Origin: an uncultured Clostridia bacterium
GTDB taxonomy: Bacteria; Bacillota; Clostridia; Christensenellales; UBA1242
Assembly: GCA_947625515.1 (NCBI GenBank)
Contig: CANQOO010000003.1
Location: 35,240-99,239, forward strand
Length of the DNA: 64,000 nt
Direction: 5' to 3'
Positions 45,694-58,986 of this stretch are shown one piece after another. Made by a program: the position numbers and the translations under genes. The notes beneath the pieces are model-generated. The model ran no database searches, had not been told where the DNA came from, and saw only the letters and a list, made by a program, of their open reading frames with translations. Each line of letters begins with the position of its first letter. Position 1 is the first letter of the stretch.

Positions 45694-45700
45694 ACAATCG

Positions 45701-45729
45701 AAAAAACACCAAGCAATTTGGTGTTTTTT
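45701..45729. terminator. Bidirectional terminator
   Basis: AAAAAACACCAA-GCAAT-TTGGTGTTTTTT between convergent genes. Confidence 0.85.
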
Positions 45730-45864: not shown

Positions 45865-47634
45865 TTATGCTGCCAAACTTTTTGCAACTGCTGTGAGGTT
45901 GAGGTGAAGGGCAGGGCGGACGGCACGAGAAAGGCTCACATGAGATTCATGCCATAATCCGCCGGACGCTCCCAGATCGCAGGCACCGAGAGAATCGTCC
46001 CAGTAGGCAGAGCGGAGCCAGGAATAGTTGAATGTAACGGAGTCATTATTTGAGCCAAACTTGCCTAAAACACTCTGATCCATATTCATAAGTTTTCTTT
46101 GATTGGTTGTTGTTTCCCAGATACCTATGTGGCTATTGTCATATCCTGTTTCGGTTAGGGATGGCAGCCAAAGATAATCATCTTTCCAAGCGTCATTGCC
46201 TTCTTGGCCAGCATAGTTGTATTTTCCATAAAAGCCATTTACAGTCGTTTCATTCCACCAGTTCTCATTTGCTAAGTCGTATTCATATGAAAGTTGATTT
46301 TTTGCACTTTGGCCATCTTTTTGCCATGAAACATGCTCTGGCGTCACAAAGAATTCTGTCAAGCCAGATTGTTCCATTGTGAAAAGTGCAAAGACATTAT
46401 TTTTGCTCTGTTCGGCTGTCGCTGTCTCAGTTCCAGATGTGGCATAGACTCCGCCGTTGTTAAGCATAACTGCTCTGATATAAGATGTTCCATACATATT
46501 GGTTGGATATTTCTCCATTTCGTGATCGGCAAGCCAGTTTGCTGACCAGTCGCTGTAAAGCGCACCATTTAAGAAACCATAATATTCGCCTTCATCTCTT
46601 TTTCTGCTTGACCAAACGTCTTGTTGGTTGTCCGCAAGCCAGAGGGTGAGGATGTCGTTTTCTTGGTCGTCTTGGGAAAGATAGACTGGCGTCCAAAAAA
46701 GTCCGCCCAGTTCAATGAGTATTTCCGCGTCATAACTATCTGCTAAGACGGAATAATCAATGTTAGAATAATCGGAGTTTTTCAATGCAGAATAATTTGC
46801 ATTTGCAGATGAATAGTTGCTTGCACTTGCGGCGTTCACTTTGTTGTAGTTTGCAATCATGTCCGTAGAGGTGGCTTTATTTTTTGCCAAGGTGTCAATT
46901 GCGGTCATGTTGGAAACATTGACATTCGCATCGCCAGAAATTTGTTGCAGAATTTTGTTCATGCTGTATGCATCAAAAGTTTTGGAAGATTCTTCAAACA
47001 GTTCCCCGATAGGTCTTTCCGCCAAACTGTCGAGGAAAATTGTGCATTCGCCGGTGCCTGTGGCGTTCTTGATTGGATTGGCAAGGGAGATTCGGATGCC
47101 AATGTCGAGGACAGATTTAACATTGCCTTGCGGGGTGACATAAAGATTTTTTAGGGACGACCTTGTGCAAAGGTATTGTGCCGTTGTCCCGTCCGTTGTG
47201 GTGCGGGTGGAGGAAGAATATTTGACTTGCAAGTTGGATGCAGTGTCAAACCCAGTCAGTTGCAATTTGACGCCAAAGCCGTCAGTGTCGCTGAGGTTTT
47301 GGATTGTGTAGTGAAATTCAACATATGCGTCCGGAGTTTTGAGGGTGATATCTGGCGTTTCCTTAAACTTCTGCTCTGTGCCGGTCGGTTCTCCGCCAGA
47401 AAATGTTAGGTCTTGCCCAAGGCTTGTTGCGTTTCCAGTGGCAGGGCCATCTCCACTGCCAGTCACATATTCGCCTGAGATAATTGCATGCACATTTCTT
47501 GCGGTGTAGGTGACATTGAACGATGCGTTCACATTTCCGCTAAGAGCCGCCCATGTTATTCCAACCGAGGCACCAACCACCACCAAGACCATGGCAAGGC
47601 TGCCAATGATTTTCCAAAATCTTTTCTTTTTCAT
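45865..47634 (-). CDS. Secreted/surface protein with C-terminal WLRS...VRPAL (C-type-lectin-like, DUF6273-like) domain
   Basis: Signal peptide MKKKRFWKIIGSLAMVLVVVGASVGITWAA; RBS GGAGGG; YLWLPS, SWLRSA and AVRPALHLNL motifs. Confidence 0.8.
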   Translation of the reverse strand: MKKKRFWKIIGSLAMVLVVVGASVGITWAALSGNVNASFNVTYTARNVHAIISGEYVTGSGDGPATGNATSLGQDLTFSGGEPTGTEQKFKETPDITLKTPDAYVEFHYTIQNLSDTDGFGVKLQLTGFDTASNLQVKYSSSTRTTTDGTTAQYLCTRSSLKNLYVTPQGNVKSVLDIGIRISLANPIKNATGTGECTIFLDSLAERPIGELFEESSKTFDAYSMNKILQQISGDANVNVSNMTAIDTLAKNKATSTDMIANYNKVNAASASNYSSANANYSALKNSDYSNIDYSVLADSYDAEILIELGGLFWTPVYLSQDDQENDILTLWLADNQQDVWSSRKRDEGEYYGFLNGALYSDWSANWLADHEMEKYPTNMYGTSYIRAVMLNNGGVYATSGTETATAEQSKNNVFALFTMEQSGLTEFFVTPEHVSWQKDGQSAKNQLSYEYDLANENWWNETTVNGFYGKYNYAGQEGNDAWKDDYLWLPSLTETGYDNSHIGIWETTTNQRKLMNMDQSVLGKFGSNNDSVTFNYSWLRSAYWDDSLGACDLGASGGLWHESHVSLSRAVRPALHLNLTAVAKSLAA

Positions 47635-47738
47635 GTTCCCTCCAAGTGCGTTTAAGGTTATCCACAATAGTATGAGAAAGTTTCTTCAAAAACAAAAAGA
47701 AATATCTCATATATATACTATGGCACATTATATTAAGC

Positions 47739-47770
47739 AGTATAGTTCGGGGGGGGGGGCTTTTTGTCAA
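47739..47770 (-). promoter_or_regulatory. Sigma-A promoter with a C11 homopolymer in the spacer (candidate phase-variable)
   Basis: Minus strand TTGACA-AAAAG-C11-GAAC-TATACT; spacer is currently 20 nt. Confidence 0.7.
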
Positions 47771-57264: not shown

Positions 57265-58986
57265 ATGAGAATATCTAAACTTGTTGGAGAAAGAATTAAA
57301 GAAGTCCCAAACGGAGCGACACTGAAAAGCCACATCCTGCTTTTGCGTGCGGGATACATAAAGCAGGTCAGCACAGGCACATTCACATTGATGCCACCTG
57401 CGATGCGGGTCAATCAAAAAATTCAAAACATCATCCGCGAGGAGATGGATGCTCTTGGCGGGCAAGAGGTGCTTTTCCCTGTGGTTATGCCACGTGAGCT
57501 TTGGGAAATGAGCGGAAGATATTCCTCCATCAAGGAGGAGATGGTCAGGCTGAAAGACCGCACGGGGCATGACATGGTGCTGGGCATGACACACGAGGAG
57601 GCCGCTGTGCATATGGCACTTAACACCGTGAAAAGTTATGACCAACTGCCGTTTATGGTGTATCAAATTCAGACAAAATATCGCGACGAGGCACGTCCTC
57701 GCGGCGGCCTTATCCGTGCACGCGAGTTCACAATGAAGGACGCCTATTCTTTCCACGCCACGCAGGAGGACTTGGAAAATTATTATAAAAAGGTGTATGA
57801 AGCATATTTTCGCATATTCAAGCGGATTGGCTTCAAAAAATTTACGGCTGTGAAAAGTGACACCGGCATGATGGGCGGCAAGGTTGCGGACGAATTTATG
57901 GCAGTGACGGACGTCGGCGAAGATAGACTTGTCATCTGCCCACACTGCGGCTATGCCAGCAACATGGAGGTGGCAGTTTCCGTAAAAGACGAAAATGACC
58001 ACACCGTTTCGGGGGAAATGGAAGAAGTTTTCACCGGAAACGCTCACACCATTGAGGAAGTTTGTGCGTTTCTGGAAGTTGACGCCAAGCACACGGCGAA
58101 GGCGGTTTGCTATCAAACATCCGACCATCGTCTTGTGGTGGTTTTCCTGCGAGGGGATTGCGACGTGAACGAAGTGAAGCTGCAAAAAATTGCAAAAAGC
58201 GAACTTCTGCCAGTTGAGGTGGAAGAATTTGGGCTTTGTGCAGGCAACATTGGCTGCGTGAACTTGCATGTGCCAGCGGAAAGCGTGGTTGTGTATGACG
58301 CCACACTGCAAGGGCTGGAAAACTTTGTGACGGGTGCCAACAAAAAGGATTTTCACCTCAAAAACGTCAGTGCCTCGCGTGACTTAAATGGCGTGGAATT
58401 TGTGGACGTTTCGCTTGTCAAAGAGAGCGAAAAGTGTGTCAAGTGCGGCCATGAATTGACGCTGACTCGCGGCATTGAAATTGGCAACATCTTCCAACTT
58501 GGCACCAAATACACCGCGAGCATGGGCATGAAGGTGACTATGCCGGACGGAACAGCAAAAGAGCCAGTCATGGGCTGCTATGGCATCGGCGTGGGACGCA
58601 GCCTTGCCAGCATAATTGAGGAAAAGGCGGACGACAAAGGGCTTGTTTGGCCAATGACAATCGCACCTTGGCACGTCCATCTTTGCCCGCTTCGCATGGA
58701 TGACGAAAATGTCAGTGCTCTTGCCGAAGAACTTTATCGCAACATGCAAAGTGCGGGCATCGAGGTGCTGTATGATGACCGCAACGTGTCCGCGGGTGTG
58801 AAGTTGACCGACAGCGAACTGATGGGCTTGCCAATCCGCGTGCTTATCAGCCCAAAAACCATTGCCAACTCTCAGGCTGAGGTGACGATGCGTGAAAGTG
58901 GCGAAAAACTTTTCATCAATTTCGGCGACCTTATCTCCGAACTTCGAGAGATGATTCGCGGTGAAATTGAAGAGATTGAAAAGTAA
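57265..58986 (+). CDS. proS: Proline--tRNA ligase (with insertion domain)
   Basis: LGMTHEE, YRDEARPRGGLIRAREFTMKDAYSF, GIEIGNIFQLGTKY, MGCYGIGVGR. Confidence 0.97.
   Translation: MRISKLVGERIKEVPNGATLKSHILLLRAGYIKQVSTGTFTLMPPAMRVNQKIQNIIREEMDALGGQEVLFPVVMPRELWEMSGRYSSIKEEMVRLKDRTGHDMVLGMTHEEAAVHMALNTVKSYDQLPFMVYQIQTKYRDEARPRGGLIRAREFTMKDAYSFHATQEDLENYYKKVYEAYFRIFKRIGFKKFTAVKSDTGMMGGKVADEFMAVTDVGEDRLVICPHCGYASNMEVAVSVKDENDHTVSGEMEEVFTGNAHTIEEVCAFLEVDAKHTAKAVCYQTSDHRLVVVFLRGDCDVNEVKLQKIAKSELLPVEVEEFGLCAGNIGCVNLHVPAESVVVYDATLQGLENFVTGANKKDFHLKNVSASRDLNGVEFVDVSLVKESEKCVKCGHELTLTRGIEIGNIFQLGTKYTASMGMKVTMPDGTAKEPVMGCYGIGVGRSLASIIEEKADDKGLVWPMTIAPWHVHLCPLRMDDENVSALAEELYRNMQSAGIEVLYDDRNVSAGVKLTDSELMGLPIRVLISPKTIANSQAEVTMRESGEKLFINFGDLISELREMIRGEIEEIEK

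Follow-up and report, generated by a model that had tools for sequence, protein, structure and literature searches.

We have analyzed a gene for a predicted surface protein in a 64,000-nucleotide stretch of DNA (the window) from an uncultured Clostridia bacterium of the UBA1242 lineage (contig CANQOO010000003.1, positions 35,240 to 99,239 of the forward strand). The gene ends in a short segment, here called the tip, which has the framework and codon make-up of the variable regions written by diversity-generating retroelements (DGRs), as an original prediction made from the sequence alone had proposed. On balance we lean towards the view that the tip is an orphaned variable region, once written by a DGR, and that its diversity is now held in paralogues. 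The tip lies at the C-terminal end of a C-type-lectin-like domain related to the DUF6273 family, and 24 paralogous tips are found in the same genome. Neither a reverse transcriptase (RT), nor Avd, nor a template repeat was found in the assembly. In two genomes of the same genus, DGRs write segments of this kind on proteins with the same motifs. The assembly that contains the window (G000; other genomes of the genus are numbered likewise) is a metagenome bin of 1,114,438 bases in 11 contigs, 80.67% complete, and the genome size is put at about 1.1-1.4 Mb.

We propose that an exported surface protein carries a C-terminal DUF6273 domain of the C-type-lectin fold, and that the segment forms the ligand-binding tip of this domain and is homologous to DGR-written variable regions in its position, its framework and its codon make-up. 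At present it appears not to be rewritten by any retroelement in this genome. The 24 paralogous tips would most likely descend from DGR-written regions and would have been drifting since. Their diversity would be stored in the germ line as a paralogue library, which recombination may shuffle into mosaics, and a poly-C promoter tract or 5' poly-G tract would probably switch most copies on and off singly. The features of the gene and its flanks are listed here.

45865..47634, minus strand: coding sequence of the surface protein, 589 amino acids counted from the ATG at 47634
45898..46716, minus strand: divergent DUF6273, C-type-lectin-like domain, placed by an AlphaFold2 model and structural alignment
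45913..46020, minus strand: variable-region-equivalent tip from W to P, WLRSAYWDDSLGACDLGASGGLWHESHVSLSRAVRP, the hypervariable segment of the paralogue family
45910..45924, minus strand: G+C-rich run GCCGTCCGCCCTGCC (A-V-R-P-A), resembling an initiation of mutagenic homology (IMH) site by position only
45865..45912, minus strand: conserved tail ALHLNLTAVAKSLAA and stop codon, recurring in one paralogue
47739..47770, minus strand: promoter-like TTGACA, 20-nt spacer with a run of 11 C (47759-47749), and TATACT, read from the sequence
45700..45725, minus strand: hairpin followed by a T-run, ACACCAAattgcTTGGTGTtttttt, identified by eye

Composition, layout and fold of the surface protein

The low adenine content of the tip region is as the original prediction had counted it: the coding strand from 46023 to 45901 (123 nt) has 13 A, 43 C, 33 G and 34 T, or 10.6% A and 61.8% G+C, in a gene with 31% A and a window with 42.6% G+C. 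This is the lowest-A stretch of its length in the gene (sliding scan in steps of 3: mean 38.3 A, standard deviation 6.8, minimum 13). Across the window, 13 or fewer A were found in 9 of 6,388 such stretches (steps of 10) and 13 or fewer T in 21; among the low-A and low-T stretches listed, the one at 45900 is the sole one with G+C above 0.54. The framework codons named in the prediction (TCC TGG CTC CGC TCT GCC and CTT TCT CGT GCC GTC CGC CCT GCC CTT) contain no A at all, and of the 26 codons outside the framework between W and HL, 18 end in C or T, which agrees with the NNC/NNT pattern it had described. Over 46020-45910 the tip has 11% A and 62% G+C, and the active variable regions of congener G017 have 11-14% A. 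This make-up is consistent with what a DGR would leave behind.

The reading frame as listed starts with TTG at 47667 and would give 600 amino acids; the true start is likely the ATG at 47634, which is preceded by GGAGGG. From N- to C-terminus the protein is made up of a hydrophobic signal or anchor (seen by eye in MKKKRFWKIIGSLAMVLVVVGASVGITWA), a beta-rich region, a linker rich in Ala, Ser and Asn, and the lectin-like domain. The hairpin and T-run at 45700..45725 are likely the intrinsic terminator of the gene. The run GCCGTCCGCCCTGCC is placed where homology between template and variable region stops in congeners G017 and G092; its synonymous sites are not conserved among paralogues.

The whole protein matched no family in Pfam (E<=1), PHROGs or NCBIfam, and its domain was identified through structure. 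An AlphaFold2 model of the C-terminal domain, built on an alignment of 21 of the 24 paralogues, has a predicted local distance difference test score of 76.5 and a predicted template modelling score of 0.82. Its best match by VIA-align is 9qa6_A over residues 32-308, which form the N-terminal DUF6273 domain of the Thomasclavelia ramosa immunoglobulin A (IgA) peptidase (Z 11.6, root-mean-square deviation 3.8, 195 aligned residues, 16% sequence identity); the available portion of a report on this enzyme terms its residues 31-322 DUF6273 (PMC12402451). The model thus has the fold of a solved DUF6273 domain, the next entry, the C-terminal domain of Legionella Lcl, standing at Z 6.1. CarF, the DGR variable protein TvpA (2y3c, Z 5.1) and PvdO were also matched, and lower down came dozens of C-type lectins at Z ~4 and Mtd at Z 3.9. 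Foldseek of the model against PDB gave nothing at E<=0.001, the family sequence profile matched no PDB chain, and the BFVD matches were weak and mostly to phage "DUF6273 domain-containing" proteins. The family profile search collected 902 cluster representatives at E<=0.001, and PF19789 was matched by 7 of 17 scanned homologues found in this way, 6 of them above the 23.5-bit cut-off. Since some homologues pass and the protein itself has no Pfam match at E<=1, we regard it as a divergent relative and not as a model-level member of DUF6273. DUF6273 has been described as C-lec-like, with DGR variable regions at its C-terminus, in the accessible parts of two reports (PMC10743442, PMC11792537), and the tip therefore lies exactly where DGRs write. 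The proposal that the segment closes a C-type-lectin-like domain is borne out by the model, the structural alignment and the Pfam matches of homologues.

The paralogue family and its codon footprint

A tblastn search of the assembly with the last 260 residues found 26 frames, and 24 of these end alike, in W-L-R-[ST], 27-33 unalignable residues, [AST]-V-R-P-A-[LF]-H-L-N-L-T and a short tail. The original prediction had looked to paralogues with the same framework, and in this genome they number 24. The two remaining frames are a copy within a frame of 9,408 codons and a frame cut by a contig end. The 9,408-codon frame (G000:C6:22488-50711, plus strand), in which the domain copy is internal and matches weakly, has a membrane anchor at its C-terminal end and looks as if it encodes a giant surface protein. 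Among 81 genomes of the genus, G000 has the most domain matches, 26, and the runner-up has 9.

Column entropy across the family is highest and most sustained in the tip segment. The framework codons differ synonymously among paralogues (CTC, CTA, CTT and TTG; CGC, CGT, CGG, CGA and AGG), and the segment also has indels. In pairwise comparisons the paralogues are mosaics, in which blocks of 90-100% identity alternate with blocks of 30-60%. Five of them reach a contig end or come within about 400 nt of one.

A run of 8-11 G or C is found near the 5' end of 20 of the 26 family frames. In 16 shorter frames, including one cut by a contig end (contigs C1, C2, C3, C5, C6, C8 and C9), this is a run of 8 to 10 G near the start of the frame; upstream of four long paralogues it is poly-C, with 11 C in the gene studied here and 9, 10 and 10 in the three others, lengths that were compared between paralogues only. 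The run of 11 C in the promoter is a candidate slipped-strand expression switch. With 20 nt between TTGACA and TATACT, the promoter in its present state has a longer spacer than a good sigma-70-type promoter would allow.

Lys, Glu, Gln and Met make up 4.7% of the residues in the variable columns of the 24 tips, compared with 23% in the other variable columns of the same genes, and Cys and His make up 7.6% compared with 2.5%. Codons for four- and six-fold amino acids more often end in C or T (tip 72% vs 51%; Fisher 5e-10). At the four-fold sites of framework codons within W..P, A is present in 13% (n=261), compared with 30% upstream (n=814; Fisher 2e-8) and 27% downstream (n=157; p 6e-4 versus the tip framework). 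Synonymous A is rare ahead of the A-V-R-P-A run and common past it; for example, GCA encodes the Ala before VRP in 3 of 24 paralogues and the Ala of RPA in 18 of 24. In its 14 framework codons the tip studied here has a single A, the lowest number among the 24 (range 1-6). It also agrees better than the other tips with the G017 template at non-A positions, matching at 47 of 71 and differing at 24 of 71.

Two other possible signals were set aside. A column-specific preference for C or T is equally strong in conserved two-fold columns outside the tip. A third-base memory of a G017-like template (172 of 294 C/T agree, compared with a hand-estimated chance level of ~48.5%) is weak, the paralogues are non-independent, and it is not relied on.

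Retroelements in this genome and its congeners

The predicted lack of an RT and a template repeat in the window extends to the whole of the G000 assembly. The RVT_1 profile had no match there at E<=1, no RT homologue was found at E<=1e-10, and tblastn with the Avd and RT of G017 gave no match. Genome-wide blastn of the tip, which the original prediction had suggested as a way to look for a template repeat, matched paralogue ends and nothing else. A gapless scan with all 24 tips, with mismatches at genomic A forgiven, returned only self matches, and an Asn-rich W-x-R-S..V-R-P frame is absent from all six frames of the assembly. The template search worked on its positive controls, G002 (19/19), G017 and G092. 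Exact-pattern scans for the tail and for the gapped tip framework gave 0 loci in the metagenome, genome and viral contigs.

DGRs are nonetheless present in the genus. In a first set of 24 genomes drawn from it, 8 had an RVT_1 match, and a homologue of the G017 RT occurs in 13 of 81 genus genomes, G000 not being one of the 13. The cassette of G017 is as follows, TR being the template repeat.

G017:C50 490-2590, strand not stated: Avd-TR-RT cassette, with remote sites on C73, C57, C84, C68, C1 and C63

It consists of Avd (NF033474, E 2e-12), a template encoding WLRSPNPNNSNNAFNVNNNGDWNNNNVDNNNAVRP, and an RT with the motif IGNQTSQ, which we take to be of the class typical for DGR RTs. Because the cassette directly adjoins proS (TIGR00408, 563.7 bits), it is chromosomal. 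The neighbours of this cassette, including the type-I proS, have no close counterpart in G000. A 586-codon frame of the window at ~57373-58983 (G000:C3:92612-94222) has weak matches to proS family I that stay under the cut-off (91.7 and 67.2 bits); it probably encodes a bacterial-type prolyl-tRNA synthetase, whereas G017 has the type-I proS by its DGR.

The G017 template has 6 remote variable-region matches, and since nearly all of them are at contig ends, this DGR fragments its own assembly. In the four of six regions examined, 19/19, 19/21, 22/22 and 22/24 mismatches fall at template adenines. G092 has the same cassette, with an RT 86% identical, and 7 variable regions that are mostly at contig ends; mismatches at template adenines number 22/22, 22/24, 21/23, 17/24, 22/24, 23/25 and 22/30. 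The five best-preserved tips depart from the template almost only at adenines. The other two (G092:C7 and G092:C14; 17/24 and 22/30) have 7-8 mismatches at non-adenine template positions and look like targets that are drifting as they escape the DGR.

The motifs at both ends of the two full-length DGR targets read in G017 and G092 match those of the protein studied here. The full-length G092 target, a frame of 453 codons, has an N-terminal hydrophobic stretch and, at its very end, a W-x-R-S tip followed by AVRPAFNLEF; its N-terminal region is 27% identical to the G000 family over 132 amino acids (blastp, E 4e-6). When the G017 template is set against the G000 tips, its framework residues (S, A, G, W, V and A-V-R-P, each in a fixed place) fall on the conserved columns and its AAY codons on the variable ones. 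A W-x-R-S ... V-R-P framework is common to the templates of G002, G017, G081 and G092.

G002 has a classical cis DGR, with a bAvd-like open reading frame, a template, an RT and a variable region in the DUF6273-like N-terminus of a 975-amino-acid protein; 19/19 mismatches fall at template adenines, and this locus served as the positive control for the finder of template and variable repeats. Near the other RT loci of the genus the finder gave nothing convincing. A cis DGR was also seen at G081:C68 ~623-1330, with template WTRSPNTNNNNNWNNVNNNGNINNNNVNNTNNVRP and variable region WTRSPYTNYSINWNNVYNYGNINNNNVYNTYYVRP, and it too has a W-x-R-S..V-R-P tip. The DGR-type RT frames at G005:C9 and G076:C25 are interrupted (1 TGA; 1 TGA and 1 TAA), possibly as decaying cassettes.

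Whether the tip is being rewritten now was assessed from the paralogues and from contigs of four sequencing runs (X1-X4) of one sample, contigs only, with a depth of ~2-8. Framework identity averages 0.66 over the 276 tip pairs and third-position identity 0.40. No pair among the 276 has the form expected of co-targets, an identical framework with scrambled codon positions 1-2. Since the paralogous tips vary at synonymous sites of the framework and by indels, no shared template can be rewriting them now. The contigs that cover the tip (X1 record 2, X3 record 18) have no other letters at this depth in this one sample, and among the rows listed there are no variant letters in 45865-46100. An active DGR on this gene is thus unsupported in G000.

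Over 45906-46133 the contigs of X1, X2 and X4 thin out or are missing. We considered this low cover as a sign of heterogeneity and rejected it. The final 54 nt of the gene (45918-45865) are also present in the paralogue G000:C3:232-2037 (blastn, 97% over 60 nt), and it is through this shared tail that contigs join to that paralogue at two breaks (45884 and 45918) and two loose ends (45918 and 45855). The X1 and X3 contigs connect the tip of each gene to the downstream flank of the other (window 45865-45918 and G000:C3:232-291, a near-identical tail of 54-60 nt), which may be ambiguity of the assembly graph or real exchange of tips by recombination. Because of these cross-joins, the pairing of tip and locus in the assembly is not fully secure.

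Of the proposal that the tip is a remote (trans) or fossil DGR target in a chromosomal, non-phage setting, the setting is upheld. Trans-acting chromosomal DGRs do exist in G017 and G092; current writing from a remote template finds no support in G000, which has no detected RT, Avd or template. The fossil target is the better half of the alternative.

Origin of the tips and comparison with known systems

The tips may instead never have been DGR targets, an account that we consider unlikely, although it has a real claim. The tip would then be an exposed, indel-tolerant binding hairpin of DUF6273 that diverges by point mutation, indels and recombination under diversifying selection; a make-up rich in Tyr, Ser, Asn and Gly and poor in Lys, Glu and Gln would be functional, and A-poor codons ending in C or T would follow from this repertoire. 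That make-up is indeed family-wide, and extends to copies within frames of 3,080 and 3,549 codons and to species without an RT match. Close pairs of tips (C5:20498 and C1:125622; C1:298165 and C9:10278) differ by ordinary single-residue changes and indels, and the mosaic blocks of identity point to recombination. Variable loops rich in Lys, Glu and Gln have the opposite third-position bias (four-fold A 41%, compared with 30% in conserved columns), as hitch-hiking predicts. However, the tips also avoid A at the four-fold sites of conserved framework codons, where there is no turnover (13% versus 30%). This avoidance is seen separately for Ala, Gly, Thr, Val, Ser and Pro, and it ends near the limit of homology to the congener template (GCA 3/24 versus 18/24). 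Cys and His are enriched about threefold, and in two congeners the same kind of segment on same-motif proteins is demonstrably DGR-written. It is rather improbable that the gene is an active remote target, rewritten in trans, perhaps with a few others, by a cassette in the ~19% of the genome that the bin lacks, or on a phage or plasmid that was not binned. The tip looks the freshest of the 24 in its A content, G+C content and framework letters; DGR loci and their targets assemble poorly, as in the regions of G017 and G092 and the five G000 paralogues at or near contig ends; DGR-type RTs are present in the genus; and three of the four sets of contigs are thin or missing over the tip. Against this, multi-target DGRs give identical frameworks, and no other tip of G000 has the same framework letters. 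The covering contigs are uniform, the 54-nt repeat accounts for the contig breaks, and the pattern scans were empty. Of the 11 congeners with close family members only two have an RT match: the template of G002 matches its own target only, and the match in G076 is a 98-codon piece with two stops.

Several results weigh against the orphaned variable region that we favour. The greatest divergence among paralogues spans the last ~300 nt before the tail, so that the differences exceed the ~100-nt tip. In 156 tip-equivalent segments (from 124 of the 150 listed family representatives) Lys, Glu, Gln and Met make up 5.2% of residues, compared with 13.0% in the whole proteins. In 20 homologous domains of 11 congeners four-fold A is 16% (n=424), compared with 42% upstream (n=1,952; p 3e-25), and 9 of these 11 have no RT match, G002 and G076 being the two that do. 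So widespread a trait does not require a relic; selection acting at the binding site may maintain it while third positions hitch-hike on Tyr, Asn, Asp, His, Cys and Ser codons. An A-poor signature rich in codons ending in C or T is in itself no proof of DGR writing, because it is common to many DUF6273 tips in DGR-free genomes. In the variable columns of the tips, third-position identity is 0.40 against an expected ~0.33 and identity at positions 1-2 is 0.34 against ~0.27 (hand-estimated expectations); the excess is similar at all codon positions, and there is therefore no clean pattern of a fixed third base with the first two scrambled. The WLRSG..AVRPALHLNL subfamily is represented by none of the DGR templates seen in the genus, which are of the G017/G092, G002/G043/G056 and G081 types. 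Finally, since the metagenome bin is 80.67% complete, the absence of a cassette from it stops short of proof for G000. These numbers would still fit a relic if, by a rough estimate, transitions were about four times as frequent as transversions. Because selection together with codon hitch-hiking could yield a similar make-up, we word the fossil origin as a conditional one.

For the genus as a whole, we put forward, as a speculation that we would not expect to hold, that one type of surface tip has two interchangeable modes of diversification: DGR hypermutation of 6-7 genes in G017 and G092, and, in the species of G000 after loss of the DGR, 24 frozen tips mostly with a homopolymer switch. In a bolder form, the avoidance of A in no fewer than 11 species, of which 9 lack an RT match, could mean that tips are still rewritten occasionally by strain-variable or phage-borne DGRs acting in trans. 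If the relic reading is true, the genus offers a natural comparison of retroelement hypermutation with a phase-variable paralogue library for a surface lectin. Both strategies would be found in genomes of ~1 Mb, a size at which 24 copies represent a considerable outlay.

DGR targets usually go unrecognised unless an RT and template are adjacent, and here a variable-region-like tip was read from composition alone; whether it is active could be answered only through the framework letters of paralogues and through congeners. Remote targets are known to escape contig-based surveys, according to the available sections of Roux et al. (PMC8144416). Much of what the tip resembles is already in print, namely DUF6273 as a DGR target in gut phages, and remote and leftover targets in Treponema denticola.

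In the accessible portions of two reports, DUF6273 targets of DGRs are described from phages of gut Firmicutes, the Faecalibacterium prophages Lelie, CP11, Roos and Pioen (PMC11792537), and among the tentaclins and target-2 proteins of phages nd4/nd12 (PMC10743442). Like the phage targets as described there, our protein has a C-lec-like domain with the variable region at its C-terminal end; unlike them, with RT and template alongside, its gene is chromosomal, belongs to a family of 24 copies and has no RT or template in the assembly. The best structural match, the T. ramosa IgA peptidase domain (PDB 9qa6), is likewise part of a secreted protein of a gut Firmicute, but it is fused to an M64 peptidase, and the consulted part of its description mentions no variable family or DGR (PMC12402451).

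The closest published parallel concerns T. denticola, for which the available text reports "leftover" target genes in isolates without RT and template, and also remote targets (PMC4891356). In both cases genes for surface proteins with variable regions persist without the core DGR, while other genomes of the group have DGRs with remote targets. The T. denticola leftovers, as far as that text describes them, differ from a known template mostly at adenines, whereas our tip has no known matching template and 24/71 non-A differences from that of G017. The fold class there is that of the formylglycine-generating enzyme (FGE) and C-type lectins (CLec), as in TvpA, and not DUF6273, and a 24-copy expansion or repeat-tract switches are not mentioned in the same portion of the paper. 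A literature search for DGR-type families with phase variation or for orphan regions turned up only a general review and the T. denticola paper.

Within the genus, the targets of G017 and G092 share with the G000 family a hydrophobic N-terminus, a W-x-R-S tip, a VRPA tail (by eye) and blastp similarity at both ends, and the tips are of nearly equal length (27 versus 28 residues between WLRS and AVRP). Unlike G000, with its 24 heterogeneous tips, these congeners have Avd, template and RT together with 6-7 tips of identical framework, and the protein subfamilies are ~27-43% identical in their alignable parts. In the phase-variable opa-type adhesin families of Neisseria, too, paralogues are numerous and vary at their binding ends, recombination produces mosaics, and homopolymer tracts lie in the 5' or promoter region. 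Their fold and organism are unrelated to those of the G000 family, in which the tracts are candidate switches. Overall, an orphan tip of DGR type on a lectin-like surface protein is an ordinary object in kind; its arrangement, in 24 copies most of which have a homopolymer tract, is unusual.

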